Of a DNA stretch of 64,000 bases, positions 15,278 to 30,525 are shown one piece after another (positions within the stretch are counted from its first letter, which is position 1; each line of letters starts with the position of its first letter). The notes under the pieces were generated by a model, which saw only the letters and a program-made list of their open reading frames with translations, searched no databases and was not told where the DNA came from. The stretch comes from Cyclobacteriaceae bacterium (GTDB lineage: Bacteria > Bacteroidota > Bacteroidia > Cytophagales > Cyclobacteriaceae). The position numbers and the translations under genes were made by a program. Location of the stretch: contig JBEBJH010000001.1 in NCBI GenBank assembly GCA_040079965.1, positions 3,862-67,861 of the forward strand, written 5' to 3'.

Positions 15278-16462
15278 ATGAGAAAGTCCCCACTGTTTGT
15301 TTTATTTATAACCATTTTCATTGATATGCTGGGGTTTGGAATCATCATTCCAATCTTACCCATCTTCACGAAGGAACTAGGAGCCCAGGACTATCAGATT
15401 GGATTAATCGCCATGATCTATCCGATCATGAATTTTTTCTTTGCCCCCCTTTGGGGAACACTCAGTGATCGCCATGGACGTAGGCCTATTATTTTAGTTA
15501 GCGTATTTATTACAGGCCTTGCTTATCTGGTATTTGCCCAGGTAAACGGATTGATTATTTTATTTCTTTCGAGAATGTTGTCCGGAATTGGCTCGGCTAA
15601 CATTTCGGTTGCCCAGGCATACATAGCTGATGTCACGACTCCACATGAACGCACAAAGACTCTTGGTTTTTTAGGTGCAGCCTTTGGAATAGGTTTCATT
15701 ATCGGACCTACGTTGGGTGGTTATCTAAAGAGTATTTCAGCACCTGGTCAGGTTGACTGGGTAGGCTATGTTACCGCAAGTATGTCGTTTGTCAATTTGG
15801 GATTAGCGTACTTTTTGCTTCCGGAATCCATGAAGAAAAAACGGGCCGATGCTCCCTTTAATTTCAAAGTTGTAACCGGAATTGTAACCGAATTAAAAAA
15901 GCCTTCCATCCGTGAGTTATTGTTGATCAATTTCATTTTCATTGCTGCGTTTATGCTCATGCAGATGGCGTGCTCGCTGATGTGGAAGGAAGTTGATGGC
16001 CTTAATGATAAGCAAATTGGATATGTGTTTGCCTTTACCGGGTTGGCAACAGCGATTGTTCAGGGAGCATTGGTAGGCCGGATGGTAAAATGGATTGGCG
16101 AAAGGAAGATGCTGACCTATGGAATCTTCTTTATGATTGCAGGGCTCGTGATGCTGCCATTGGTCGGGGAGTCTTACTTTATTCCTTTTGAGCTAGTGGG
16201 CCTTGCATTGATTGCGATGGCAAATGGGTGTCTTACACCGAGCATTACATCTATGATTTCAAAATATGCTGATCCCAAAGACGTGGGTCAGGTGCTTGGG
16301 GTCAATCAATCGTTTGGCTCCTTAGCCCGAGCAGCCGGCATGGGATTAAGTGGATTTCTTTATGGAATGAATTTTCATGTTCCATTTTTTGCCGGAGCCT
16401 TCCTAATGGCAATATGCTTTTGGTTGGCAAATACATTTTCAAAAATTCCAACTCAGTCTTGA
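15278..16462 (+). CDS. MFS transporter (DHA1/TetA-like family)
   Basis: 12 TM segments, motif A GTLSDRHGRRP, motif C GIGFIIGPTLGG. Confidence 0.9.
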   Translation: MRKSPLFVLFITIFIDMLGFGIIIPILPIFTKELGAQDYQIGLIAMIYPIMNFFFAPLWGTLSDRHGRRPIILVSVFITGLAYLVFAQVNGLIILFLSRMLSGIGSANISVAQAYIADVTTPHERTKTLGFLGAAFGIGFIIGPTLGGYLKSISAPGQVDWVGYVTASMSFVNLGLAYFLLPESMKKKRADAPFNFKVVTGIVTELKKPSIRELLLINFIFIAAFMLMQMACSLMWKEVDGLNDKQIGYVFAFTGLATAIVQGALVGRMVKWIGERKMLTYGIFFMIAGLVMLPLVGESYFIPFELVGLALIAMANGCLTPSITSMISKYADPKDVGQVLGVNQSFGSLARAAGMGLSGFLYGMNFHVPFFAGAFLMAICFWLANTFSKIPTQS

Positions 16463-17118
16463 ATCGAAGATTTAGGAAGCTTCACTAAAGACCAATAGAT
16501 ATTTCTGAGGTAAGCGATTAAACCAAGTCCTTGAGCCACCAACAGAACCGGGTCGTGACGATAGATTCCATAAATTACGACCATCACGGAAGCAAATGCA
16601 CTGATCACCCAAAAGCCTAAAGGCAAAATTGATTCATTTACTTTCTCGGAGTGATACCATTGATACAGATATCGAAAATTAAGAAGCAATTGGCCGATTG
16701 TGCCTATGATGATAAAAAGATCCGTGAAATCTGCTTTGCTGAAAATCTGATCAAAAGTTTCAGGAGAAAATAATCCAACCCATAAAAGAAGCAGCGGTGG
16801 AAGAGGAAAAATTATGATCCTCAATACGAGTGGAAGCTTAATCCAGAATCCTTTTAGCTGAAGATTACGGATGTAGATATAAAACGAAATGGTTTGTCCG
16901 AAGAGGATTACGAAATCATGTCGGAGGATACCATAGATCAGAAATAGGAACGATCCACAGATACTAAAAATCCAAAATAGGGTGGGAGATACAACCTTGC
17001 CCTCTCGTTCAGATTTTATCCATTGAATAATTGTACGGGCACCAAACAACGATTGGGCAAAGAAACCAAGTCCATAAATGAGAAGATCTTGCCACGAAAG
17101 TTGTCTGATAGACTCCAC
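16453..17118 (-). CDS. Lipid-A-disaccharide synthase N-terminal (LAB_N) domain membrane protein
   Basis: Two internal repeats, FGARTIIQWIKSE...PTLFW and FRYLYQWYHSE...PLGFW, each followed by YGI.RHD.V. Confidence 0.8.
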   Translation of the reverse strand: MESIRQLSWQDLLIYGLGFFAQSLFGARTIIQWIKSEREGKVVSPTLFWIFSICGSFLFLIYGILRHDFVILFGQTISFYIYIRNLQLKGFWIKLPLVLRIIIFPLPPLLLLWVGLFSPETFDQIFSKADFTDLFIIIGTIGQLLLNFRYLYQWYHSEKVNESILPLGFWVISAFASVMVVIYGIYRHDPVLLVAQGLGLIAYLRNIYWSLVKLPKSSIQD

Positions 17119-17159
17119 CCAGGTTACAGGTTAAGGATATGATTTCTTTTTGCTCTGGA

Positions 17160-18335
17160 TTATTCCTCCACCTTATTTTTCATAGTCATCAGAAGATTGT
17201 AAGCCCCTTTAACGACAACTTTTTTATCGACCAAACTCTCACCAGAAACAATTTCGATAAATCCATTTTCAAAAACACCAGTCTTAACTTCATGAATGGA
17301 GTAAGCCGCATCACGTTCAGTCAGGAAAATGTACTGATTGTTTTGAAAGCGGACAATGGCCTCTTCCGGCAGAGCATAGACACTAGTGTTTTTGATTTCA
17401 ATCTCAGCATTCATGTACATCCCTGGCACGAGGGTCTTATCGTAATTTTCAAAATGAGAGTGAACCTCGGTGCTTCTTTCCGCTGATAGATTTTTTCCGA
17501 TGAGAATAATCTCGCATTCATGTCTTTTATCGGGTTGACTATTCGTGTAAGCAAATAACTTTTGGCCGATTGAGAGCTTGCTCAGGTCTTTTTCAAAAAT
17601 CGTCACTGCAAGGTGTATGTCTGACGGGTTGATCAGTTCAAACAGCACTTCACTGGGCTGGGTGAACTTGCCAATATTTACATTCACCTTCGAAACATAT
17701 CCATCAATAGGCGAATAGATATTGATGCTTTTTGAAATCCTATTTTCATCCAGCTTGTCAGGATTTATCCCAATGAGTTCAAGGCGTTCGGCCAGCGACT
17801 TCACATTGATTTTTTCAGTTGCGTAATCAACTTCCGTTTGTTGAAAAACCTTGTCGCTGCTGGCCTTGCTTTGATTCAGTTCTTTCTGTCGATTGTATTC
17901 ATTAGCCGTAAAACTCAGCCGCGCTTTGGCGGTCAAATAGTCTTGCTGTAACTGAATATACTGTTGGTCTTCCATAACTGCAATTACCTCGCCTTTATTT
18001 AGATGCATACCCGGAAGCAGTTTGGTAGACTTAAGGTAGCCCCCCATGGGTACACTTACTGAAATCATATTTTGTGGAGGTACATCAACTCGTCCGTTTA
18101 CCTTCAGCACACTCGATATTGACTTTTGTTCAATTTTACCGAGTACAATCCCGGCATTTTTAAGTTGGGCCGGAGATAGAGTAACAGAATTTTCTACATG
18201 TGTGGAATCAGCACTATCAGTCGTCTCGTTTTTTGAGCCGCATGAGATGACGGACGCCAGAGTACAAATCGCAAGAAGGGACCTTATCATGTAACGGGAT
18301 TTTGTAATCGGATATGTCTGAAGGATATTTTTCAT
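17160..18335 (-). CDS. RND efflux periplasmic adaptor (CzcB/CusB-like), copy 1
   Basis: Lipobox VISC, lipoyl halves (VSVPMGGY..., IYSPIDGYV), YIQLQQDYL, LVPGMYM.AEI. Confidence 0.9.
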   Translation of the reverse strand: MKNILQTYPITKSRYMIRSLLAICTLASVISCGSKNETTDSADSTHVENSVTLSPAQLKNAGIVLGKIEQKSISSVLKVNGRVDVPPQNMISVSVPMGGYLKSTKLLPGMHLNKGEVIAVMEDQQYIQLQQDYLTAKARLSFTANEYNRQKELNQSKASSDKVFQQTEVDYATEKINVKSLAERLELIGINPDKLDENRISKSINIYSPIDGYVSKVNVNIGKFTQPSEVLFELINPSDIHLAVTIFEKDLSKLSIGQKLFAYTNSQPDKRHECEIILIGKNLSAERSTEVHSHFENYDKTLVPGMYMNAEIEIKNTSVYALPEEAIVRFQNNQYIFLTERDAAYSIHEVKTGVFENGFIEIVSGESLVDKKVVVKGAYNLLMTMKNKVEE

Positions 18336-18433
18336 GTGTTAATTTTTATTTTTTAAGGTTCGGTCACATGGAATTCGCATATTAACATACCCTTGGGGAT
18401 AACGATCTTTATGCTCATTTCATGAAGGATATC

Positions 18434-21400
18434 TTATTTATAAATGAAATAATTGAGTTGAATAATGCTTTCGTTGAGATTGTTCACCGCAATCAAATAT
18501 TCGTTTCGAAGGGAGATGGCCTGGTTGGTAAGCATCACCCACTCTAAGTAGTTGATTCCGCCATTCGCAAATTGTTTATTGGCGGTGTCAGTAATTAGCG
18601 TTGCGTTTGTTAAACCGGTTTGTTCATAATAATCAACTGACCTGGCGAAGTTGAGGTATTGTGTAATGGCCCTTTGATATTCGGTATTGAACTGTTGCAA
18701 GCCAGCCAGGTAGTTTGTTTCGGTTATTTTCTGAATGGATTTGGAGGCGTTGATTTTAGCTCTTTGCGAGCCGTAGAACAGAGGTATTCCAAGACCAATC
18801 TGACCTGACTGAAACCGGGCTGAACCACCATATGAGATATTGTCCGCACCGGTACCTCGCATCGACATGTTGTTATAGGCAAACGTGAGATCGGGCAGTA
18901 GTTTGGATTTTTCCAATTTAGTGTTCCTGATTGAGATCTGTTTCTGTTGTTGTAACCATTGAATGGCAGGATGTAGTGAGAGGGTGGGCGAATCAATTGT
19001 TTCAATTCTACTCATTTTAAAATCATCTTCTTGCGGCACCAGTAATGTGGTTGTATTTAATAAAAGTTGAAACTGTGCCTTCAATAATTCAAGATCAGCC
19101 TTCAGTTGGTTGAGTTGCAAACCGATTTGTCCTCGCTGTGTTTCGGCTGTAGTCTTTTCAAGAATATTAGTCTCCCCTACAGCAAATCTTAAATTGGCCT
19201 TCTTCAGAAACTCGCTGTATAAACTATCATTTTGCTGTAACAATTTTCGCTTTTGCTCCAGATAGGTAAGCATATAATAGACCTGTGATACCTGCCGCTT
19301 GAGTTCAACTTCTTTTATGGCTACGTTCAACATACTGCTTCTCCACTCTTCTCGTAACACAGACTTTTGATTCGAATAAACGGAAGGGAAATTGATATTC
19401 TGGTTAATTACAAATCGATTATCAGAGAAGCTACTATTGATCTGACCGTACTCACCGATTACCATTGTCTGAGGTAAGTTCGCACCTGATTTGATCAGCT
19501 GATTTTGATATTCCGCTTTTAATCGTTCGTTCTTAACCAATAAATTATTGACCAATGCAGTATCAATGGCCGCCTGTATAGTAATTGGTGTTTGTGCATT
19601 TGCTCCTGAAACTGAGGCGGTCAGCAGAGCAAACACTAATAAAACAGCTAGGGGCATCATTCTTTTTTTCTTTCCGAGTTTAGTTTCAAATATGATATAT
19701 AACACAGGCAGAACAAATAAAGTAAGTAGCGTGGCGATCAGTAAACCCCCGATTACAACGGTGGCCAATGGTCGCTGAACTTCAGCACCGGCACCAGTGC
19801 TCAAGGCCATGGGTAAAAAGCCTAAGGATGCAACCAAGGCTGTCATGAGTACGGGGCGTAACCTGAGTTTTGTTCCAGATATCACAATATGGTAGAGGTT
19901 GAATTGTCCCTCTGCCTTCAAGCGATTAAATTCGGCAACCAAAACAATTCCATTCAGTACAGCCACACCAAACAAAGCGATAAACCCAACCCCGGCACTT
20001 ATACTAAACGGCATGCCTCGCGTTGCGAGAGCAAAAATTCCCCCGATTGCAGAAAGTGGAATAGCAGAATAAATCAGTAAGCCATGTTTGACGGATTTAA
20101 ATGCAAAGTACAGCATAACGAAAATCAATAGCAGCGATACTGGAACGGCAATGCTCAGTCGTTTCTTGGCGGCATTTAAATTCTCAAATGCTCCACCATA
20201 GGTTACATAATACCCCACCGGAAAATTTATTTGAGCATCTACCTTTTGCTGTAGCTCAGTCACTATAGTTTGCACATCGCGGCCACGCACATTAAAGCCA
20301 ATGATGATCCTGCGTTTGGCATCCTCACGCTGAATTTGATTAGGACCTTCTTTAATTTCAACTTCGGCTAATTGATTTAAGGGAATTTGATTTCCCTGTG
20401 GAGACGGGATTAATAAATTCTGAACGTCACTGATATTTTTGCGCTGCTCACCGACCATGCGCACAACCAGGTCAAATCTCTTCTCCTCTTCATACACTTG
20501 ACCAGTGCTTTGCCCGGCAAATGCGGTATTGACAATTCTATTGATTTCAGAAATATTCAAACCGTATTGAGCGATTGCAGCCCTATTATATTTTATAACG
20601 ATTTGAGGCATGCCACCCACAGCTTCCACGTATAAGTTGGCACTTCCTTCTACGGTATTTATCACATTGCCTAACTTGTTAGCATAGTGCGCAAGGGTAT
20701 CCAGGTTTTCTCCAAAGATTTTGCAAACCACATCCTGTCTTGCCCCGGTCATCAACTCATTGAAACGCATTTGCACCGGATACTGAAAACCAAACGTAAC
20801 TCCGGGAACAGCTTCCAAAGCTTTTCCCATTTTCTCAGCAAGTTCATTAAAGGTGGTAGCTGAAGTCCACTCGCTTTTGTCTTTCAGGATTACCATCATA
20901 TCACTGGCTTCGATAGGCATCGGGTCGGTGGGCACTTCACCGCTTCCTGTTTTGCCAACTACCTTTATTACTTCCGGAAAATTTTCCAAGAGTATTTTTT
21001 CACCCTTCAGCGTAGCGTCAACAGAAACACTGAGATTACTTCCTGTGAGCACCCGAGTGTCAACGGCAAAGTCCCCCTCTTCCAATGCAGGGATAAATTC
21101 ACCTCCAAGAAAAGAAAGAGTAATGAGGGCACTAATGAATAATGCAATAACGGTAAGCACTACCGTTTTAGGAAAGCCCAGCACTTTTTTCAGGGCGGCT
21201 TCATAAAGGCGTTCAATTTTTTCCATCATTCTATCAGAAATGTTTTTCGAGTGTTTCACTTTTTTACTTAGAAAAACGGAGCTCATCATGGGAATGTAGG
21301 TGAGCGAAAGGATGAAGGCACCCAGTAAGGCAAAGGCAACGGTTTGAGCCATGGGCTTAAACATTTTTCCTTCAATGCCCTGTAAGCTGAAGATAGGAAG

Positions 21401-22789
21401 GTATACAATCAGGATTATGATTTGACCAAACACAGCACTGTTCATCATCCTTCCTGCCGAGTGGATTACTTCACCGTCCATTTCGTTTTGATTGATCGCA
21501 TTAAGCGACTTGAACTTTTGGCCATGGGCCAACTGATGCATGACAGCCTCCACAATAATCACGGCCCCATCGACAATCAACCCAAAATCTAAAGCTCCCA
21601 GACTCATCAGATTTCCGCTTACGCCAAACAGGTTCATCATGATTACAGCAAAAAGCATGGCTAGCGGAATAACCGATGCTACTAAAAACCCAGCACGAAA
21701 GTTTCCGAGGAATAAGACCAGAACAAATACCACAATCAAAGCTCCCTCCATTAAATTTTTCTCAACGGTGCCAATTGCCTGGCTTACCATTTTAGTTCTA
21801 TCAAGAAAGGGTTCGATTTCTACGCCCTCTGGTAAAATCTTCTTGATTTGCTCGATTTTAGCTTTGACATCTTTAATAACAAGACTGCTATTGGCGCCTT
21901 TCAACATCATCACCACCGCACCGGCTACTTCACCTTCACCATTGTAGGTCATCGCTCCATAGCGAATGGCACTGCCTATTCTCACCTCGGCTACATCTTT
22001 GATGAATAACGGAGTTCCATTCTCCGTGTTTTTGACCGCGATATTGTTGATATCAGCTAGATTGCCAATCAATCCTTCGCTTCGAATGTATAGCACAGTT
22101 GCTTGTCGCTCAATGTAAGCACCTCCGGTATTTTGGTTGTTATTCTCCAGGGCACTGAACACATCGCTAACGGTAAGTCCGTATGACTTCAGTTTATTTG
22201 GGTCAATGGCTATCTCGTACTGTTTCAGTTTACCCCCAAAACTGCTGACATCTGCCACACCAGAAACTCTCAAAAGTTGTCTTCTTACGATCCAATCCTG
22301 AATCGTGCGTAACTCAGTAATATCGTACCGACCTTCATATCCCTTTTTCGGCCTCACAACATATTGATAGATTTCGCCCAGCCCTGTTGTAACGGGTGCC
22401 AAAACAGGCACACCTAAACCCTTTGGAAGTTGATCTTTGACAATCTGTAAGCGTTCGGTTACTTGTTGACGAGCCCAGTAAACATCGGTGTCATCATCGA
22501 ATACGATCGTTACCAGCGACAATCCGAATCGCGAAAAACTCCGGATTTCAAGAAGACCATGAATGTTGCTGTTTACCTGTTCGATCGGGAACGTGATAAG
22601 ACGTTCAATATCTGCTGCACCTAATGATGGAACAATGGTGATTACCTGTACCTGGTTATTGGTAATATCAGGCACGGCATCAATCGGCAGCCGGGTGAAT
22701 TCATAGCTACCATAGCCAATGAGTCCAATCACCAACAGCCCAATGATTAATTTCTGCCTTACTGAAAATTCTATGATTTTATTTAACAT
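18434..22789 (-). CDS. CzcA/CusA-family heavy-metal RND pump fused to a C-terminal TolC/OEP domain, copy 1
   Basis: PIDAVPDITNNQVQV, GALDFGLIVDGAVIIVE (proton-relay D/D/E), RLRPVLMTALVASLGFLPMA. These are followed by a signal-like segment (..ANAQ) and about 385 aa of OEP-like helices. Confidence 0.93.
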   Translation of the reverse strand: MLNKIIEFSVRQKLIIGLLVIGLIGYGSYEFTRLPIDAVPDITNNQVQVITIVPSLGAADIERLITFPIEQVNSNIHGLLEIRSFSRFGLSLVTIVFDDDTDVYWARQQVTERLQIVKDQLPKGLGVPVLAPVTTGLGEIYQYVVRPKKGYEGRYDITELRTIQDWIVRRQLLRVSGVADVSSFGGKLKQYEIAIDPNKLKSYGLTVSDVFSALENNNQNTGGAYIERQATVLYIRSEGLIGNLADINNIAVKNTENGTPLFIKDVAEVRIGSAIRYGAMTYNGEGEVAGAVVMMLKGANSSLVIKDVKAKIEQIKKILPEGVEIEPFLDRTKMVSQAIGTVEKNLMEGALIVVFVLVLFLGNFRAGFLVASVIPLAMLFAVIMMNLFGVSGNLMSLGALDFGLIVDGAVIIVEAVMHQLAHGQKFKSLNAINQNEMDGEVIHSAGRMMNSAVFGQIIILIVYLPIFSLQGIEGKMFKPMAQTVAFALLGAFILSLTYIPMMSSVFLSKKVKHSKNISDRMMEKIERLYEAALKKVLGFPKTVVLTVIALFISALITLSFLGGEFIPALEEGDFAVDTRVLTGSNLSVSVDATLKGEKILLENFPEVIKVVGKTGSGEVPTDPMPIEASDMMVILKDKSEWTSATTFNELAEKMGKALEAVPGVTFGFQYPVQMRFNELMTGARQDVVCKIFGENLDTLAHYANKLGNVINTVEGSANLYVEAVGGMPQIVIKYNRAAIAQYGLNISEINRIVNTAFAGQSTGQVYEEEKRFDLVVRMVGEQRKNISDVQNLLIPSPQGNQIPLNQLAEVEIKEGPNQIQREDAKRRIIIGFNVRGRDVQTIVTELQQKVDAQINFPVGYYVTYGGAFENLNAAKKRLSIAVPVSLLLIFVMLYFAFKSVKHGLLIYSAIPLSAIGGIFALATRGMPFSISAGVGFIALFGVAVLNGIVLVAEFNRLKAEGQFNLYHIVISGTKLRLRPVLMTALVASLGFLPMALSTGAGAEVQRPLATVVIGGLLIATLLTLFVLPVLYIIFETKLGKKKRMMPLAVLLVFALLTASVSGANAQTPITIQAAIDTALVNNLLVKNERLKAEYQNQLIKSGANLPQTMVIGEYGQINSSFSDNRFVINQNINFPSVYSNQKSVLREEWRSSMLNVAIKEVELKRQVSQVYYMLTYLEQKRKLLQQNDSLYSEFLKKANLRFAVGETNILEKTTAETQRGQIGLQLNQLKADLELLKAQFQLLLNTTTLLVPQEDDFKMSRIETIDSPTLSLHPAIQWLQQQKQISIRNTKLEKSKLLPDLTFAYNNMSMRGTGADNISYGGSARFQSGQIGLGIPLFYGSQRAKINASKSIQKITETNYLAGLQQFNTEYQRAITQYLNFARSVDYYEQTGLTNATLITDTANKQFANGGINYLEWVMLTNQAISLRNEYLIAVNNLNESIIQLNYFIYK

Positions 22790-22973
22790 CGCTTTTTTAA
22801 TATAGATCAGAACGGACTTTATTGAGGTATTCTATTCATCTAATTTTTTATTTTTTTTGGCTTGATTAGATAACCAAATCAAACCACATGCAATCGTAGA
22901 TCCAACTTAGAACGCAATTGAAATCCCAATATGAACAGGTCGGGACAAAAGAACCTAATGTGGCTTTGAGGTA

Positions 22974-23378
22974 TTAAAGAATTCGGGGCGGTTGCCAAAC
23001 AGACTGACTAAACTCTGAAGAAAAGGCGGAGTGGTAAAAATTGGAATATGTAACTACTGATTCTAATGATACGATTTCCGGTGCTTTGAATAAGGGTAAT
23101 ACTATGACTGTGTGGGTAAATGTGCAATCTGTGGCTTTAAAAGGCAGACCTTGATGCTCTTCATGTTCTTCTTGATCGTGCTGAGCAGCCCCTGAGCCGT
23201 AGTGAAGGTTTAAAAAATCAATAAAGGAAACATCAGCGGTTTTGGTCTTATGTAGTTGAAAATGTTCAATTAGCTTCGGTAACTTTACAAAATCGTGCAA
23301 ATCTAGCATGCTACCCAACAGGGTTACATTAATTAGCAGGATTCCAATTGCCTTGTGAATTGACACGAGATGAAACAT
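22974..23378 (-). CDS. His-rich small protein ending in WQPPRIL; putative metal-responsive leader, copy 1
   Basis: N-terminal hydrophobic segment and motifs LIEHFQLH, DFLNLHYG, HDQEEHEEHQGLPFK, CTFTH, SVWQPPR. Paralogous to 28107-28505. Confidence 0.75.
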   Translation of the reverse strand: MFHLVSIHKAIGILLINVTLLGSMLDLHDFVKLPKLIEHFQLHKTKTADVSFIDFLNLHYGSGAAQHDQEEHEEHQGLPFKATDCTFTHTVIVLPLFKAPEIVSLESVVTYSNFYHSAFSSEFSQSVWQPPRIL

Positions 23379-23539
23379 TTAGCAGCGTAAAATAAAAAAG
23401 AAAATCTGAATAGATTCTGAATGAACTATTTAAAAGGCTTAAAATAGGGTGAAAACCAAAGTAAGCTCACTTCAATGGCTCTAGCTTTTTGAATTGTGTG
23501 GAGATCGACCATTTTGGATTAAATTTTTTCTTGCCAAAA

Positions 23540-24661
23540 TTACTCTTGAGTAGATTTCATTTTCATCAACAAGCTATAAGCGTTTTTGACAACCAGCTTT
23601 TGAGTAATCAAAACGTTTTTAAGTTCTGTAAAGCCATTGTTCGTCATCCCGATTTCAACAGGATACATGGTAAACACCCCCGTTGATTTTTCTATAAAGA
23701 CGTAGTATTTATTTTCCCAGCTTACAATGGCATCCTCAGGCACAGAAATTACTTCACTGTTTCTAAGCTCAATTTCCGCGGTAATGAACATGCCAGGGAG
23801 AAGTGCCCAATCAGCATTTTCCAGATCGCAGTGTATTTCGCTGGTTCGCTCGTCATTCAGACTTTTGTTAATAAGGTGGACACGCGCGGTATAATTTTTT
23901 TGAGGCTGAGCGTTGGAGTAGACGTTTACCTTTTGACCAAGAGCAATCAACGCCATATCTTTTTCGAAAGCAGTGAGGCTAACATGTAACTTGCTTTCAT
24001 CCACCAGCAAAAGCAAAACATCGGTAGGACTGACGTACTTTCCAACATTGACATAGATACCGGCTACGTAACCGTTGATAGGAGCGCGCAGAGTCACCGA
24101 TCCGGATAATGAAGTTTCATCCAACAGATCAGGATTGATATTGATTAGTTTTAATTTCTCATACAGCGCCTTCGTTAAAATTTTCTGACCCATGTAATCG
24201 CTGCTTGCCTGTTGAAAGGTTTTATCACTGGTAGATTTATCAGCATTTAAATCACGCTGTCGCAGGAAATCTTTAGTAAGAAATTCCAATTTGCTCTTAG
24301 CCATCAGGTAGTCTTGTTGTAGTTGGATGTACTGAGGGTCTTCCATGACAATCAGCATGTCGCCTTGTTTTACGCGAGTTCCTGGCAGGAGATTCATTTT
24401 TTTAATGTACCCACCGAACGGATTGCTAACGGATATCTTATTGGCAGGAGGAACTTCAATCACGCCATTTAAGCGAATGGCAGTGCTCATGTCTTTTTGT
24501 TGTGGTTGGCCTATTACAATCTCAGCATTTTTTATTTGCTCTTGGGTTAGCTGAACAATATTATTTTCAGTGCCAGTTGTTGCTGTATCGGTTTGCGCGG
24601 CTTCTTTTTTACAGGAGAACAAAAGCAAGCCCAAGCTGAATACAAATGCAATTCTTTTCAT
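23540..24661 (-). CDS. RND efflux periplasmic adaptor (CzcB/CusB-like), copy 2
   Basis: Lipobox LLFSC. Paralog of 17160-18335 (YIQLQQDYL, LLPGMFI.AEI). Start refined to ATG 24661. Confidence 0.88.
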   Translation of the reverse strand: MKRIAFVFSLGLLLFSCKKEAAQTDTATTGTENNIVQLTQEQIKNAEIVIGQPQQKDMSTAIRLNGVIEVPPANKISVSNPFGGYIKKMNLLPGTRVKQGDMLIVMEDPQYIQLQQDYLMAKSKLEFLTKDFLRQRDLNADKSTSDKTFQQASSDYMGQKILTKALYEKLKLININPDLLDETSLSGSVTLRAPINGYVAGIYVNVGKYVSPTDVLLLLVDESKLHVSLTAFEKDMALIALGQKVNVYSNAQPQKNYTARVHLINKSLNDERTSEIHCDLENADWALLPGMFITAEIELRNSEVISVPEDAIVSWENKYYVFIEKSTGVFTMYPVEIGMTNNGFTELKNVLITQKLVVKNAYSLLMKMKSTQE

Positions 24662-27600
24662 TTGAGAATTTTTTAAACAATTCGATTTGAAAACCATTTC
24701 GTTGTGCTGTTGAATAATGTTGAAATATGCTGCCCGGATTTTGGATGGAGAGGTTATTCGCAAAGGGCTCACCTGCTTTATATGTCGAAATTTTTTCCTG
24801 TGCTTTCGATGATGCTACATGAAGAACTACAAGAGCCAAAACTAAAATAGCAACAGCTGTTTTTGGTAACGCAAATCTTTTTTCCAGCATGGTATAAAGT
24901 ACGGGTAGTATAAAAAGAGTGAGCATGGTGGAGATAATCAATCCGCCAATTACAACAGTTGCCAGCGGCTTTTGCACTTCTGCACCCGCCCCCTGACTAA
25001 TGGCCATTGGGATAAAACCAAGCGCAGGAACAAATGCCGTCATAAGGATGGCGCGCAATTTTGATTTGGTGGCATGAATAACGATGCGTTCTGTATCGGT
25101 CCAGCCTTCACTTTTTAGCAGATTAAATTGAGAAACCAATAAAATTCCATTCAGTACCGCCACACCAAACAATGCAATAAAACCGACACCCGCTGATATA
25201 CTGAAAGGCATATCGCGGATCCAAAGGGAAAATATGCCACCCATGGCAGAAAGCGGAATAGCAGTATAGATGAGCAATCCTTGTTTGATTGATCCAAAAG
25301 CAAAATAGAGCATGAGAAAAATAAGAAGCAGGGCGATTGGAAGAACAATGGTCAATCGCGCCTTGGCTGCATTGAGGTTTTCAAACGCTCCGCCATATTT
25401 AATGGTATAACTTGGAGGAAGCTTTAAACTCTTTGAAACTTTGTCCTGCAATTCAGTTACAATAGATTGAACGTCACGCCCACGAACGTTGAAGCCCACA
25501 ATAATTCTTCTCCGTGTATTTTCACGCTGTATTTGATTAGGGCCAACAATCTCTTCGATGTTGGCCACCTGATATAATGGCACCTGAGTACCGTTGTCAA
25601 TGGGGATCAAAAGATTTTGAATGTCTTTGACATTTCTTCTCGATTCGTTTTCAAGACGCACCACAAGATCGAAGCGTTTTTCGCCTTCATATACAAGCCC
25701 GGCACTTTGTCCGGCAAAGGCGGTATTTACGGTGTTGTTAATGTCACGCACGTTAAGTCCATACATGGCCATTGCTTCGCGGTTGTAGGTGATAACAACT
25801 TGTGGCATACCCGTTACCGTCTCCACATATAGATTAATCGCACCATCAACGGTTGAGATTAGCTCACCAAGCTTTTTGGAATATCGTGCAAGCGTATCCA
25901 GATCTTCACCGAAAATTTTACAAACTACATCCTGCCGCGCACCGGTCATGAGTTCGTTGAAGCGCATTTGAACCGGAAATTGAAACCCGAAACTTACGCC
26001 TGGAATATCTTCCAGTTCTTTGCCCATTTTTTCTGCGAGCTCATCGAACGAGGAGGCCGAAACCCATTCACTTTTATCCTTTAGTATCACCATCATATCG
26101 CTTGCCTCCAGTGGCATGGGGTCTAGGGGAATTTCAGAGCTTCCGATTTTTGTGACCACTTTTTCAACTTCCGGAAAACGGTCCAGTAAAATTTTTGCTG
26201 ACTTCTGCGTGGTATTTATCGTGTTGGTAAGACTGCTTCCTGTAAGCAATCGCGTGTCGATTGCAAAGTCACCTTCTTCCAATTCAGGAATAAATTCACC
26301 ACCCATGTTCAAAAGCACGAAGACTGAAACAGCAAATAAGCTTAACGTAGTAGCAATCGCTGTCTTTGGAAACGTGAGAACTTTATGAAGGAGCGGTTGA
26401 TATTTTCTTTCCACCCACGCCATCATTTTATCAGCCACTGTTTTTGCGTGACTTATTTTTTTGTTAAGAAACAGTGAACTCATCATGGGCACATAGGTAA
26501 CGGAAAGAATGAAGGCGCCTAAAATGGCAAACGCAACCGTAAAAGCCATCGGCTTAAACATTTTACCTTCTATACCTTCAAGAGAAAGAATGGGGATGTA
26601 GACAATGAGGATGATGATCTGACTGAAGACAGCAGACTTGATCATTGAGACCGTTGAATGCTCAACTTCCTGATTCATTTCTTGTTGAGTGAGCACGCCT
26701 ACTTTTGCAAAATGTTGAGAGTGCGTAAACCGATGAAGAATAGCCTCTACGACAATTACGGATCCGTCTACAATCAGCCCAAAATCAATAGCACCAAGGC
26801 TCATCAGGTTGCCGCCAATTCCAAACCGGTTCATTAGTATTATAGCGAAAAGCATGGAGAGCGGTATCACTGAGGAAACAATCAGTCCGGCCCGCAGATT
26901 TCCTAAGAAGAAGACCAACACAAAGACTACAATGAGTGCGCCTTCTATAAGATTTGTTTTAACGGTATTAATGGCATTGTTTACCATCTTGGTCCTGTCG
27001 AGGAAGGCTTCAATCATGACTCCTTCAGGAAGGGATTGTTGTATCTCAGCAATTTTTGCTTTTACATTTTTTATTACTGCCGATGAGTTTTCGCCTTTCA
27101 GCATCATCACAACAGCGCCCGCTACCTCACCCTGATCGTTATAAGTCATGGCACCGTATCGTGTTGCATAGCCAAGACCAACCAAAGCAACATCCCTCAT
27201 GAGCACAGGCATGCCATTGGCTAATTTCCTCACAACAATTTTTTCGATATCCGGAATTCCTTTGGTGAGTCCTTCTGTGCGAATGTAAAGTACTGTTGGC
27301 CCCTTTTCGATGTAGGCACCCCCCGTATTTTCATTATTATTTTCAAGTGCCAGGAAAACATCAGCAATCGTTACCCCATACGCCTTCAATTGTTCTGTTC
27401 GCACCGCGATTTCATATTGCTTGAGTTGACCACCAAAGCTGCTCACATCGGCTACACCGGGAGTGCCCAGCAGTTGCCTTCTTATCGTCCAGTCCTGAAT
27501 TGTGCGCAGCGACATGGCATTATACCGGTGCTCATAACCGGGCTTGGCCCGCACTACATATTGATAGATTTCTCCCAGACCCGTAGTAACAGGTGCCATG

Positions 27601-27986
27601 TCAGGAATGCCAATGCTATTCGGAATGGTTTGTTTTACCTGGGCCAGACGCTCACTGATTTGTTGTCTTGCCCAATAGATGTCGACACCATCTTTAAATA
27701 CGACTGTTACCAGTGATAGACCAAAACGTGAAAAGCTTCTGATATTTTTTAGTCCCGGGATATTGCTGCAAGACTGTTCGATAGGAAATGTAATCAAACG
27801 CTCAACATCCGTTGCACCTAATGCAGGCGAGACCGTAATCACCTGCACCTGGTTGTCAGTTATATCGGGAACGGCATCAATGGGCAACTGGGTAACCTCA
27901 TAGCTGCCATAGCTGATGAGTCCAATAACGAACAGACCGATAATTAACTTTTGTTTTACAGAAAATTCTATGATTTTATTTAACAT
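24609..27986 (-). CDS. CzcA/CusA-family RND pump, copy 2, with the TolC domain truncated
   Basis: Complete RND body (GAIDFGLIVDGSVIVVE, KLRAILMTAFVPALGFIPMA). After KAQEKIS only about 20 OEP-like residues remain, then an out-of-frame tail that overlaps the adaptor start. Start refined to ATG 27986. Confidence 0.85.
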   Translation of the reverse strand: MLNKIIEFSVKQKLIIGLFVIGLISYGSYEVTQLPIDAVPDITDNQVQVITVSPALGATDVERLITFPIEQSCSNIPGLKNIRSFSRFGLSLVTVVFKDGVDIYWARQQISERLAQVKQTIPNSIGIPDMAPVTTGLGEIYQYVVRAKPGYEHRYNAMSLRTIQDWTIRRQLLGTPGVADVSSFGGQLKQYEIAVRTEQLKAYGVTIADVFLALENNNENTGGAYIEKGPTVLYIRTEGLTKGIPDIEKIVVRKLANGMPVLMRDVALVGLGYATRYGAMTYNDQGEVAGAVVMMLKGENSSAVIKNVKAKIAEIQQSLPEGVMIEAFLDRTKMVNNAINTVKTNLIEGALIVVFVLVFFLGNLRAGLIVSSVIPLSMLFAIILMNRFGIGGNLMSLGAIDFGLIVDGSVIVVEAILHRFTHSQHFAKVGVLTQQEMNQEVEHSTVSMIKSAVFSQIIILIVYIPILSLEGIEGKMFKPMAFTVAFAILGAFILSVTYVPMMSSLFLNKKISHAKTVADKMMAWVERKYQPLLHKVLTFPKTAIATTLSLFAVSVFVLLNMGGEFIPELEEGDFAIDTRLLTGSSLTNTINTTQKSAKILLDRFPEVEKVVTKIGSSEIPLDPMPLEASDMMVILKDKSEWVSASSFDELAEKMGKELEDIPGVSFGFQFPVQMRFNELMTGARQDVVCKIFGEDLDTLARYSKKLGELISTVDGAINLYVETVTGMPQVVITYNREAMAMYGLNVRDINNTVNTAFAGQSAGLVYEGEKRFDLVVRLENESRRNVKDIQNLLIPIDNGTQVPLYQVANIEEIVGPNQIQRENTRRRIIVGFNVRGRDVQSIVTELQDKVSKSLKLPPSYTIKYGGAFENLNAAKARLTIVLPIALLLIFLMLYFAFGSIKQGLLIYTAIPLSAMGGIFSLWIRDMPFSISAGVGFIALFGVAVLNGILLVSQFNLLKSEGWTDTERIVIHATKSKLRAILMTAFVPALGFIPMAISQGAGAEVQKPLATVVIGGLIISTMLTLFILPVLYTMLEKRFALPKTAVAILVLALVVLHVASSKAQEKISTYKAGEPFANNLSIQNPGSIFQHYSTAQRNGFQIELFKKFSNEKNCICIQLGLAFVLL
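24662..24803 (-). pseudogene. Remnant of the internally deleted TolC/OEP domain of CzcA copy 2
   Basis: One frame reads QEKISTYKAGEPFANNLSIQN (copy 1: QTPITIQAAIDTALVNNLLVKN). Another frame reads IRAAYFNIIQQHNEMVFKSNCL (copy 1 C-terminus: LRNEYLIAVNNLNESIIQLNYF). Confidence 0.65.
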
Positions 27987-28106
27987 CGCTACTGACTTTA
28001 CAGTTACTGGGATCGCTGTTTTTGGCAACATCCAGGGAAGCAAACAGAAGAGGATCGAAAATGAACAGGCGTGGTTAACGTTCAATAACCTGTTGCATCC
28101 CAAATT

Positions 28107-28505
28107 TTAATTTCGTGGAGGTTGCCAGATAGACTCACTAAACCCAGTGTAGAAATTTGACTGATAGAAATTTGAATAGGATCTGTAAAAATTGATGGAG
28201 GTTATTTCGCAAGCATTGACATTTGAAATGACACTAAGGATATGAGAAAAAGTACAAGTGCTTGATTTAAACGGAAGGTTCTGATGTTTGCCGCGTTCAT
28301 CCTGATCATGCTGATTAGCCTGACGGCCATAGTGTAAGCTTAAGAAATCGACTAAAGAAAAATTGGACACCCTATTAAGGTGTTCGTGATAATGTTCAAT
28401 AAGTATAGGCATCTTCACCACACTATGTAAATCCACTATACTACCCATTAGAGTTAGCGACAATAGCAGAATGCTTGTGGATTTAGTCATATATAAAAAT
28501 ACCAT
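28107..28505 (-). CDS. His-rich small protein ending in WQPPRN; putative metal-responsive leader, copy 2
   Basis: Motifs LIEHYHEH, DFLSLHYG, HDQDERGKHQNLPFK, CTFSH, SIWQPPR. Directly upstream of CzcA copy 2. Confidence 0.75.
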   Translation of the reverse strand: MVFLYMTKSTSILLLSLTLMGSIVDLHSVVKMPILIEHYHEHLNRVSNFSLVDFLSLHYGRQANQHDQDERGKHQNLPFKSSTCTFSHILSVISNVNACEITSINFYRSYSNFYQSNFYTGFSESIWQPPRN

Positions 28506-28558
28506 GCTCTGGTAACTTAAAATATGATTTATATCACCCGGGCAATTGATTAGACAAC

Positions 28559-29611
28559 CTAAAACAAGGAGAGATTCCCGCCTTTGCGGAATTTTGTTAA
28601 GTCATAAGCAGGCATCTGCCTTCCTGAAAAGTACTTCTTCTTAGAGACTCGATATAATTGATGAATAGCATCAGCAATGTTTCCTTCTCCTGACATTCGC
28701 CTGCCGAATTGTGAATCGTTTACATTGCCACCATGAAAAGAGCAGATCTGGTTCCAAACCTTATCAAACCGATCCGGAAAATTCTTGCGCAGCCAGTCCT
28801 CAAAAATTTTGCCAATAGAGCCATTGAGTCGAACAACCGTCATGCCAGCAGCCAGCGCTCCATGATCGGAGGCTGCTTTTAAAACATGAGGTATTTCATG
28901 ATGATTCAGGCCAGGAATAATTGGGGCATTCATCACGCCTACGGGTACACCGGCCTTCGAAAGTTCCTCAATCGTTTTTAATCGTTTCAGCGAACTGGCA
29001 GTGCGCGGTTCAAGAATTCGTCTTAGCGATTCGTCTAATGTGGTTATTGAAATGAATACCTGCACCAGGTTATCAGAGGCCAGGTCTTTCAACAGATCAA
29101 GATCGCGAAGTATTAAGCTATTCTTGGTGATCATTCCTACGGGGTGACGATAGGTGGCAAACACCCTCAACAGATTTCGGGTGATTTCAAATTTTTTCTC
29201 TTGCGGTTGATAGCAATCTGTGTTGCCGCTGAGCATAATAGGTATTGCATTCCAGTTTTTGTTAAGCAGGTGTTTTTCGAGTAGTGCCGGAGCATTTTTC
29301 TTTACAATGATCTTGCTTTCAAAATCTAACCCGGCACTAAAGCCATAGTATTCATGTGTGTTTCGTGCATAGCAATAAATGCATCCATGTTCGCAGCCTT
29401 GATATGGGTTCATGGAATACATCATACTTAAATCGGGGCTGTCTACTTTATTCACAATCTTTTTCGGAGTTTCGAAAAAGATTTGCGTGGTGGGCGATTC
29501 CAGCAAGGGCTCATCAAGACCTTCGATATGATCGGTGACATACTGAGATTTTAGAAACCGGTTTTCGGTTTTTATCTGGGCCCCACGACCTTTGAAATAA
29601 GATTCATCCAT
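28559..29611 (-). CDS. PA0069/Rv2578c-family radical SAM protein (SplB-like, COG1533)
   Basis: SMNPYQGCEHGCIYCYAR (CxxxCxxC), SGNTDCYQP, ITKNSLILRDLD, LEPRT, APIIPGLN. Confidence 0.9.
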   Translation of the reverse strand: MDESYFKGRGAQIKTENRFLKSQYVTDHIEGLDEPLLESPTTQIFFETPKKIVNKVDSPDLSMMYSMNPYQGCEHGCIYCYARNTHEYYGFSAGLDFESKIIVKKNAPALLEKHLLNKNWNAIPIMLSGNTDCYQPQEKKFEITRNLLRVFATYRHPVGMITKNSLILRDLDLLKDLASDNLVQVFISITTLDESLRRILEPRTASSLKRLKTIEELSKAGVPVGVMNAPIIPGLNHHEIPHVLKAASDHGALAAGMTVVRLNGSIGKIFEDWLRKNFPDRFDKVWNQICSFHGGNVNDSQFGRRMSGEGNIADAIHQLYRVSKKKYFSGRQMPAYDLTKFRKGGNLSLF

Positions 29612-29621
29612 AAAACAATAA

Positions 29622-29638
29622 TACTAATTAATTTAGTA
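29622..29638. promoter_or_regulatory. Palindromic operator TACTAA-N5-TTAGTA (candidate Bacteroidota SOS box)
   Basis: Perfect 6-bp inverted repeat with a 5-nt spacer, filling the 32-nt gap between divergent start codons. Confidence 0.65.
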
Positions 29639-29643
29639 AAACA

Positions 29644-30525
29644 TTGATCAGATACCAAAAAACAACTATTTCTGAGTTGAAAAGCGAAATAATTGAGCAA
29701 TCAGGGGTCAGGCTTTTGATAAAAAGAGAGTATCAAAACCATCCCATGGTGTCGGGCAATAAATGGTGGAAGCTCAAATACAATCTGGAGGAGGCATTAA
29801 AAGCCGGACAAACTACTTTGCTCACGTTTGGGGGAACCTACTCGAATCACATTTACGCAACCGCTGCAGCTGCGCATGAGTTGGGTTTGAAATCTATTGG
29901 AATTATTCGGGGTGAAGGAACGCTTCCATTAAACTCCACCCTTTCATTCGCGAAAGCGAGAGGTATGCTACTTCATTACATTTCGCGTGAAGCATACAGA
30001 AACAAGACAGAAGCGTCATTCATGGAACAATTCCATAATCAGTTTGGGGATTTTTATCTGATCCCGGAAGGAGGAACGAATGAACTTGCTGTGAAGGGTT
30101 GTGCAGAGTTTGCAAAGCAACTAAGCGCTGAGGTTGCTTTTGATTATATCTGTTTACCGGTGGGAACGGGCGGAACGATAGCAGGAATAATTGAAAGTCT
30201 GGATGAGTCAAAGAAGATCATTGGGTTTCCTGTATTAAAGGGAGCAACATTTCTGGAAGATGAAATCAGAAAATATACCTCAAAAACAAACTGGCAATTA
30301 GTTTTCGATTATCACTTTGGTGGCTATGCAAAAGTGACTAAAGAGCTGAAGGAATTTATGGATCAATTTGAAAAGGAATTCAGCGTACCATTAGATCCGG
30401 TCTATACAGCGAAGATGATGTTTGGAATCATTGATTTGATTAAGAAGAAATTCTTTGAAGCAGGCTCAACGATTTTAGCAATTCATACAGGAGGTCTTCA
30501 GGGAAGTGCAGGCTTTAATTCCTGA
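29644..30525 (+). CDS. PLP-dependent ACC deaminase/D-cysteine desulfhydrase-family protein
   Basis: SGNKWWKLKY (PLP lysine), TFGGTYSNH, IPEGG, VGTGGT, LDPVYTAK, IHTGGLQG. Confidence 0.88.
   Translation: MIRYQKTTISELKSEIIEQSGVRLLIKREYQNHPMVSGNKWWKLKYNLEEALKAGQTTLLTFGGTYSNHIYATAAAAHELGLKSIGIIRGEGTLPLNSTLSFAKARGMLLHYISREAYRNKTEASFMEQFHNQFGDFYLIPEGGTNELAVKGCAEFAKQLSAEVAFDYICLPVGTGGTIAGIIESLDESKKIIGFPVLKGATFLEDEIRKYTSKTNWQLVFDYHFGGYAKVTKELKEFMDQFEKEFSVPLDPVYTAKMMFGIIDLIKKKFFEAGSTILAIHTGGLQGSAGFNS

Follow-up and report, generated by a model that had tools for sequence, protein, structure and literature searches.

Two small ORFs at the head of czc efflux modules

We analysed a 64,000-nucleotide stretch of DNA from a Cyclobacteriaceae bacterium (assembly GCA_040079965.1, contig JBEBJH010000001.1, positions 3,862 to 67,861; hereafter the window, with position 1 at its first letter), in which two metal-efflux modules each begin with a small open reading frame (ORF) that ends in a diproline motif. 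An initial annotation had placed the two ORFs at coordinates that we confirm, although both lie on the minus strand, and had read them as candidate metal-sensing, ribosome-stalling regulators of the efflux genes. ORF-A (23378..22974) has 134 amino acids (aa) counted from the first ATG and ORF-B (28505..28107) has 132 aa as listed, and the two are paralogs (57/112 identical residues, 51%; E = 9e-45). As that annotation described, each stands at the start of an efflux module: on the same strand, a CusA/CzcA-family pump gene comes next and then a membrane-fusion protein gene, with the small ORF as the leading cistron of the operon. The pair and the promoter-like box next to ORF-B are as follows.

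22974..23378, minus strand: ORF-A, small leader-like ORF with an N-terminal hydrophobic segment, His motifs, LPFK, C85 and the end VWQPPRIL
22983..23000, minus strand: proposed arrest motif codons of ORF-A, V127-W-Q-P-P-R132, then codons for I and L and the stop (22974-22976)
28107..28505, minus strand: ORF-B, paralogous small ORF with the end IWQPPRN
28113..28130, minus strand: proposed arrest motif codons of ORF-B, I126-W-Q-P-P-R131, then a codon for N and the stop (28107-28109)
28494-28501, minus strand: -7-like box TATTTTTA, one mismatch to TAnnTTTG, 3 nt upstream of ATG 28490

Both ORFs contain all of the motifs first listed for them (LIEH[FY]xxH, DFLxLHYG, HDQ[ED]..HQ[GN]LPFK, CTF[TS]H and S[VI]WQPPR), and the last of these does lie one or two residues from the stop, its R being followed by two residues in ORF-A and one in ORF-B. 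The His-motif residues of ORF-A are H28, H39, H43, H59, H67, H72 and H75, followed by LPFK (78-81) and C85. The true start of ORF-B is probably the second ATG, at 28490 (MTKST..., giving 127 aa), because the -7-like box overlaps the first ATG; that of ORF-A is probably the GTG at 23366 (giving 130 aa), because its first ATG is not conserved in close relatives. Neither ORF matched any Pfam or NCBIfam model at permissive thresholds. The pair is far beyond chance, with homologues down to E = 1e-80 and 2,464 clusters at 50% identity.

Family spread, architecture and genomic context

A first homologue search yielded 32 close homologues, all of approximately 130 aa, and the profile built from these retrieved the 2,464 clusters at E ≤ 1e-3, and 916 at E ≤ 1e-10, from 1.84 billion representative proteins; the profile search that the initial annotation had suggested thus recovers a large family. 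Matches are 110–135 aa long almost throughout, with alignments that reach to 1–3 residues from the C-terminus, and none of the 150 matches listed carries a C-terminal extension or fusion. Members measure about 125–134 aa and so fall under the 150-aa size criterion for DUF2946/CutF-like proteins. The named sources are Bacteroidota only—most closely Cyclobacteriaceae and Ohtaekwangia, further Chitinophagaceae, Mucilaginibacter, Lutibacter, Psychroflexus, Chryseobacterium and Saprospiraceae—and conservation at the protein level spans at least four classes of the phylum. Where these genes are annotated at all, they are called 'hypothetical protein', including a copy (at 90788-91168) on a plasmid of the cultured Chryseobacterium balustinum strain KC_1863, and 47 diverse members gave no Pfam match at E ≤ 0.01. 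On that plasmid (NZ_CP033935.1, 90788-100891; loci L054/L056) the family member is followed by czcA-OEP and an adaptor gene. Because this module adjoins transposase genes and a P-type ATPase, the ORF–pump unit can travel inside a mobile metal-resistance cluster.

The family has a uniform plan, which we quantified for motifs in 278 distinct sequences, for the N-terminal segment in 236 and for spacing in 267. A hydrophobic N-terminal segment (12-aa window, mean Kyte–Doolittle ≥ 1.8) is present in 232/236, with K or R ahead of it in 217, and its median uncharged run of 15 residues has the length of a signal peptide and is short for a membrane anchor; the N-terminus is predicted to be signal-peptide-like. 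In a diverse alignment, a conserved block (TELHELxKLPxLxxHYxEH ... SFxDFLxLHY; 2.41 bits per column) leads into a variable His/acid-rich stretch, which is proportionally more length-variable than the spacer further on, and then into LPFK, frequently followed by DC (2.12 bits). The spacer between LPF and QPP is the least conserved stretch (0.92 bits), in keeping with its first description as poorly conserved, and the C-terminal xIWQPPK is the most conserved segment (3.68 bits). Conservation of WQPP at the C-terminus, anticipated from the two window ORFs, extends across the homologues: PP lies near the C-terminus in 277/278 sequences (the lone exception is truncated), QPP is found in 273 (four have E, H or R for Q and one is truncated), with W directly ahead of it in 264 and K, R or Q after it, which gives the consensus [IV]WQPP[KRQ]. 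Exactly three residues come after QPP in 211/273 and two in 39/273, so that PP is less than 15 residues from the C-terminus, and the distance from LPF to QPP is 48–51 residues in 225/267 and 46–54 in 250/267. Distant members from Flavobacteriia retain [FLH]QPP[QK]. The Pro codons are synonymously variable among loci, and the constraint therefore acts on the peptide.

Other conserved residues are His (H39, H43 and H59), a His-rich stretch and one semi-conserved Cys (C85), and the family has no Cys-based metal motif (CxxC or CxxxC). AlphaFold2, run on the 47-sequence alignment, gave a mean predicted local distance difference test score (pLDDT) of 78.7, with predicted helices at residues 2–22, 27–30, 33–46, 52–60 and 64–77, pLDDT > 90 over residues 30–70, and no predicted secondary structure over residues 78–134. 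Searches of the PDB by sequence and by fold returned nothing resembling the family protein. One homologue, on a long-read contig of a Flammeovirgaceae metagenome-assembled genome (L023:5914-6411), lacks the IWQPP end through an apparent frameshift, which may be an assembly error or mark a pseudogene.

The pump gene is the constant neighbour. In all 53 readable instances czcA is the next gene on the same strand, across a gap of 46–185 nt that contains no other gene, and it never overlaps the small ORF. These instances comprise 35 from genome loci and the window, where blastp identified the downstream gene as CzcA (E = 0), and 18 of 20 further metagenome loci, where the N-terminus of CzcA is visible downstream (of the other two, one lies on a contig that stops short and one gave no clear assignment). 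The upstream flank is varied, with radical SAM, response regulator, YceI, GldC-like, glycosidase-fragment or transposase genes. Homologues had been expected upstream of metal exporters or TonB-dependent receptors; the exporter link holds in 53/53 instances, and a receptor link was not seen. A conserved local regulator gene is absent from the window, as first noted, and also from the other loci viewed.

Within the window, the order along the minus strand is a PA0069-family radical SAM gene (28559-29611, directly upstream of ORF-B), ORF-B, czcA-B, an adaptor gene, ORF-A, a czcA-OEP fusion and a second adaptor gene. The pump and adaptor genes are listed here.

24609..27986, minus strand: CusA/CzcA-family resistance–nodulation–division (RND) pump of module B, 1125 aa from ATG 27986; motif in transmembrane helix 4 (TM4), DFGLIVDGSVIVVEA
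23540..24661, minus strand: membrane-fusion adaptor of module B, with lipoprotein-type signal MKRIAFVFSLGLLLFSC from the start ATG 24661
18434..22789, minus strand: CusA/CzcA-family RND pump of module A with a C-terminal TolC-like outer-membrane factor fusion, 1451 aa; TM4 motif DFGLIVDGAVIIVEA
17160..18335, minus strand: membrane-fusion (CzcB-type) adaptor of module A

Each pump hits TIGR00914 (CusA/CzcA) with E = 0 and has DFGLIVDG[AS]VIxVE in TM4, which we take to be the divalent-cation type, not the CusA type, of Nies' classification. The module-B adaptor likely starts at ATG 24661, which overlaps the end of czcA-B by approximately 50 nt, and ORF-A begins 161 nt downstream of this adaptor gene. 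The single-gene fusion of ACR_tran and OEP in module A recurs in Mucilaginibacter, Ferruginibacter, Chryseobacterium and other Bacteroidota (loci L005, L007, L009, L010 and L054), and other relatives have OEP as a separate gene. Module B has no outer-membrane factor gene; the C-terminus of its CzcA is about 85 aa longer than in unfused relatives, and this extra segment may be a fusion remnant. Beyond the radical SAM gene lie genes for a pyridoxal phosphate (PLP)-dependent enzyme and a DUF5698/DUF2179 protein, an order kept in Cytophagales relatives (radical SAM gene at L001 6901-7950 and L002 6842-7894) and not in other lineages; radA is adjacent in the window only. A search for the window sequence in public runs found it in drinking-water metagenomes and in no RNA run.

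The 5′ end of the pump mRNA and the intergenic gaps

The Bacteroidota -7 element TAnnTTTG covers positions -12 to -5 relative to the transcription start (PMC6847099). At no fewer than 11 of 39 distinct loci (at least 11/39), an exact TAnnTTTG ends 4–7 nt ahead of the start of the small ORF, a placement for which the chance expectation is well below one locus, and only 5/41 intergenic gaps contain an exact box, four of them from one Lutibacter lineage. Since the box abuts the ORF start and few gaps hold one, the small ORF lies at the 5′ end of the pump mRNA; on the evidence of these boxes, the ORF and the gap together are the 5′ leader of that mRNA. Relatives of ORF-B have an exact box at the position of TATTTTTA, which would imply a leaderless or near-leaderless ORF-B mRNA, and the box placements likewise imply that many family members are probably translated from such mRNAs. 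Leaderless mRNAs are rare in Bacteroidota (5.5% in F. psychrophilum), and 87% of leaders in F. johnsoniae are longer than 10 nt. A scan for sigma-70 promoters and terminators gave counts at or below shuffle expectation, with a scan model unsuited to Bacteroidota promoters.

The untranslated gaps of the two modules are the remaining part of this leader.

22790..22973, minus strand: untranslated gap from ORF-A to czcA-OEP, 184 nt; fold z = -0.30 versus shuffles; no exact TAnnTTTG box
27987..28106, minus strand: untranslated gap from ORF-B to czcA-B, 120 nt; fold z = -0.79 versus shuffles; contains a hairpin and TTTT

The terminator-like hairpin of the module-B gap (28062-28097, followed by TTTT at 28058-28061) has a dG of -6.8, a value reached by 3% of shuffles. 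Across the family, the 41 distinct gaps fold below dinucleotide shuffles (mean z -1.83; 46% under -2). When a ribosome footprint was forced at PP, the computed cost of opening the czcA start fell by 2–7 kcal/mol in seven loci, among them the Lutibacter group (5–7 kcal/mol), L009 (5.7) and L007 (3.1). In the Lutibacter-group gaps (L029:6343-6470, L032:961-1088, L033:6340-6467 and L052:898-1028), a perfect 9-bp helix, GUAACAUAA / UUAUGUUAC, joins the stop codon of the small ORF to the start codon of czcA, with an inner hairpin that shows one compensatory change and an exact TAAATTTG box in the gap. In the consensus fold of module-B-type gaps, whose four sequences are too few to rely on, the WQPPR codons pair with 28025-28040 and the czcA AUG lies within a short helix (three compensatory pairs); the consensus folds of the module-B and Lutibacter types rest on four sequences each and 1–3 compensatory pairs.

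Several general devices were tried and set aside. Intrinsic terminators were rejected because just 5/41 loci have one, and start-codon unmasking was rejected because it is strong in the seven loci but gives p = 0.35 overall. A duplex between the 3′ end of the ORF and the czcA start is stronger in native than in partner-swapped pairs (p < 5e-5) but is confounded by per-genome GC content: 8/24 loci reach 0.05 against shuffled partners and none against coding-sequence windows, and we do not count it as general evidence. A scan of 16000-30000 against Rfam (E ≤ 1) gave two chance-level matches to eukaryotic snoRNA/snRNA families and no riboswitch. The evidence for coupling is weak and lineage-dependent. 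The long unstructured gap of module A would be the expected look of a Rho-dependent device such as that of CruR, described below.

Resemblance to arrest-peptide leaders and alternative roles

CruR (Bp2923 of Bordetella pertussis, DUF2946) is a 145-aa protein with an export signal, a 45-aa spacer that is constant to within 1–2 residues over more than 2,000 proteins, and a 162-nt intergenic region with Rho-dependent termination (PMC9426467). Like the window ORFs, it is a small exported ORF heading a metal-homeostasis operon for which no local regulator is needed; its metal motif and C-terminal xxPP stand at a fixed distance (approximately 45 aa (45 ± 2), compared with 48–51 here), and its untranslated gap is long (162 nt, compared with 120–184 nt in the window). 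It differs in its motif (RAPP instead of IWQPP) and its metal site (CxxC for copper, where the family has His), it is proteobacterial, it belongs to a Pfam family (DUF2946) that the sequences here do not match, and its target is an importer shut off by metal, whereas the exporter here would be expected to switch on. CutF of Rhodobacter capsulatus, also DUF2946, has a Sec signal, CxxxC and the end ...GPPPRL, and is undetectable in vivo and functional in cis only, according to PMC9973294 and bioRxiv 10.1101/2025.02.05.636593. It shares with the family the sequence of Sec signal, metal motif and C-terminal Pro motif, the latter followed by R and 1–2 residues (PPPRL versus PPRIL and PPRN), as well as its place immediately upstream of the target, which CutF requires; in its case metal induces a detoxifying function. 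CutF, however, melts a stem–loop over a Shine–Dalgarno site across a short gap. Bacteroidota have no Shine–Dalgarno sites, the window gaps have no comparable structure, and a comparable masking helix is confined to certain lineages, for example the Lutibacter group. The parallels with both systems are closer than the initial annotation had noted, extending to the distance of three residues between motif and stop, the fixed spacer length (about 48 aa), the long untranslated gap and the place of the ORF at the very front of the mRNA, and to judge from sequence the family reproduces each architectural feature of CruR and CutF with different residues.

A link by descent is less clear. The DUF2946 profile (PF11162) matched none of the window proteins even at E ≤ 10 and none of the 47 members at E ≤ 0.01; CzcI of pMOL30 itself reaches only E = 0.026 against it. 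CzcI (Cupriavidus metallidurans pMOL30, NCBIfam NF045614) is in CutF-like cluster 20 of PMC9973294, and its parts (L055:15176-15523) come in the order signal peptide, YCQHE, HLGHHEH, PFVDTDCGVCH, spacer and a Pro-containing end. It too is a small ORF immediately upstream of a czc RND operon, and its motifs run parallel to those of the family (YCxHE with HYxEH; HLGHHEH with LHYG and the His-rich stretch; PFxDxDCxxCH with LPFKxxDCxxxH). Some 40 aa of variable spacer come next and then, close to the stop, an invariant motif that includes Pro. That motif is P(D/E)RPQWxxLA, not IWQPP, and CzcI contains Cys; in an alignment of 32 CzcI sequences, P(D/E)RPQW is invariant about five residues from the stop, and most of those outside Cupriavidus have PPDRPQW. 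Profile alignment of the family with these 32 sequences by hhalign gave a probability of 37.8% (E = 3.4e-4, 67 columns), and NF045614 matched 1 of the 47 members weakly (E = 0.0088), far below its cut-off. This weak similarity hints at homology of the family to DUF2946/CzcI and does not prove it. For DUF6660, which had been put forward for comparison, no Pfam family matched the window proteins or the 47 members (assuming that this copy of Pfam holds the DUF6660 model), no DUF6660-like PP-ended ORFs occur in 509 kb of related loci or on the Chryseobacterium plasmid, and our literature search found no paper mentioning DUF6660, or WQPP in the sense of an arrest motif.

At the level of the motif, membership of the arrest-peptide class is plausible from the resemblance to IWPPP and RxPP. 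FxxYxIWPPP, RxPP and HGPP are elongation stallers selected in E. coli (Woolstenhulme et al. 2013), and the full WPPP peptide is reportedly little affected by elongation factor P (EF-P), both as cited in PMC7897499 and PMC11669330. The family has the I-W-x-P-P core of the first peptide in the same register and the general X-x-P-P shape common to RxPP and HGPP, together with upstream aromatics (a semi-conserved Y at about -17, and YSNFY in the subgroup of the window). By contrast, it has Q for the first P and its F and Y positions are out of line; the selected peptides are also synthetic, with E. coli as their sole test organism. TnaC and SecM offer a further likeness in their position at the 5′ end of an operon, a conserved Trp in the tunnel segment, and a stall beside the stop codon or a long spacer that governs downstream expression (through Rho for TnaC and start unmasking for SecM); their sequences are unrelated, however, the ligand of TnaC is cytoplasmic, and SecM senses export activity, not metal.

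We propose, at about even odds (a probability near 0.5), that ORF-A and ORF-B are cis-acting regulatory arrest-peptide leaders of the two czc operons and Bacteroidota counterparts of CutF and CruR. The nascent chain would be exported co-translationally, so that when the ribosome reaches QPP the His region would already lie beyond the ribosome and translocon and the spacer would fill the exit tunnel: if P130 occupies the peptidyl-transferase centre, 48 aa of unstructured spacer would span the tunnel to the translocon. A divalent metal (Zn, Co, Cd or Ni) that binds this exposed part could alter the pulling force or the folding of the chain, which would change the length of the pause at IWQP-P, and a paused ribosome would sit over the stop codon and the beginning of the gap and thereby raise czcA expression. 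The coupling is probably lineage-specific: in the Lutibacter group, L009 and L007 the czcA start codon would be freed from a helix, and in the window operons prevention of premature termination seems more likely, either Rho-dependent, as in CruR, or at the hairpin and T-tract of module B. By analogy with two experimentally studied systems, such leaders would explain the position of the stop, the lack of fusions, the first position in the operon, the constant gap and the spacer.

A doubtful but serious alternative is that the ORFs encode stable exported proteins acting in trans, that is, signal-anchored or periplasmic His-based metal-binding proteins serving as a metallochaperone for CzcA/CzcB (as CusF does for CusCBA), as an accessory subunit of the pump or as a CzcI-like periplasmic metal-sensing regulator, with the C-terminal IWQPP as a docking peptide on a flexible tether. 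The predicted helical His region (pLDDT > 90, residues 30–70), the conserved His residues and the His/acid-rich stretch would suit such a protein, the strict co-occurrence with the pump equally suits a dedicated partner, the motif order resembles that of CzcI, suggested elsewhere to be a metal-sensing regulator, and a tether of fixed length could account for the conserved spacing. A docking peptide, however, leaves unexplained why the stop is fixed 2–3 codons past PP though the trailing residues vary, and the trans model as a whole does not account for the absence of extended or fused forms among the 150 matches listed or for the approximately 55 C-terminal residues without predicted structure. 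Unlike cusF, the gene is always first in its operon and never elsewhere; a constant untranslated gap and a spacer conserved in length and free in sequence are not readily explained, no solved structure or fold matches, and CutF, of the same build, is undetectable in vivo and acts in cis only. Far less probable is that the ORFs are precursors of a peptide modified by the adjacent PA0069-family radical SAM enzyme (28559-29611). In the window, L001 and L002-L004, the enzyme gene immediately precedes ORF-B or its homologue on the same strand, but ORF-A has no such neighbour, the upstream genes are unrelated in Mucilaginibacter, Ferruginibacter, Chryseobacterium and others, so that the synteny is confined to one lineage, and the constant partner is czcA. 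The PA0069 family is widespread and is not known as a peptide maturase. Least credible of all are spurious or non-functional frames in a long 5′ untranslated region: apart from the label 'hypothetical protein' and the missing annotation, nothing favours them, and conservation of the protein over at least four classes with synonymous codon variation, in 2,464 clusters, already refutes them. The probability left after the leader and trans models goes to other or mixed roles.

Several points weigh against the leader interpretation. That ribosomes stall at QPP, that the His motifs bind metal and that the ORFs act in cis are steps that we infer, and a PP with K, R or Q after it is not known as one of the strongest EF-P-dependent stall contexts. 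In the AlphaFold2 model, the N-terminal half resembles a small, folded domain (pLDDT > 90) such as a stable protein would have. In the window itself no RNA device for the leader model was found: neither gap exceeds shuffles in structure (z -0.30 and -0.79; the closest relatives have z > 0), and the footprint eases opening of the czcA start by 1.4 kcal/mol in module A, where the control yields 0.9, and by 0.2 in module B. Taken over all loci, the footprint has an effect indistinguishable from that of a control (p = 0.35), only 5/41 gaps, that of module B among them, contain a hairpin followed by a T-tract, no consensus fold emerged from 11 module-A-type gaps, and no RNA mechanism common to the whole family was found among folds, terminators and unmasking. 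Operons also use a gap with a partial terminator to make more of a first gene product that is required in surplus.

The principle is already known from CutF, CruR and CopL, and Bacteroidota CutF-like proteins have been surveyed. List D of PMC9973294 holds 5,334 CutF-like proteins, of which 19% are from Bacteroidota, with ACR_tran among the downstream neighbours, which leaves less novelty than the initial annotation implied; the His-only CutF-like clusters described there have HupE/UreJ neighbours. What appears to be new is the very large family itself, unannotated and with motifs based on His (list D being judged by its description), along with the distinct IWQPP motif, the strict link to CzcA-type pumps, the frequent leaderless expression and a possible bridge to CzcI. 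We tentatively go further, at somewhat less than even odds, and suggest that IWQPP[KR] may be a natural arrest module independent of RAPP/PPP, placed in a His-based exported chain that is often leaderless, senses periplasmic divalent metals and switches on heavy-metal-efflux (HME) RND pumps without a transcription factor, and that CzcI may be a distant relative acting alike through PPDRPQW.

If the trans model holds instead, CzcA pumps would have a new periplasmic partner that binds metal through His, a useful but ordinary result. On the leader reading, a family of approximately 2,500 'hypothetical protein' clusters gains a name and a testable function, and CzcI is flagged for the same test. 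If the ORFs are arrest-peptide leaders, they would take the CutF/CruR principle beyond copper to divalent metals, beyond Cys to His chemistry, and beyond Proteobacteria to a phylum with a different translation start; they would also supply a new arrest motif of natural origin, similar to one obtained by selection in E. coli. Most heavy-metal RND pumps of Bacteroidota would then be under nascent-peptide control and not under two-component or MerR/ArsR-type regulators, which would explain the frequent absence of a regulator gene in such operons.

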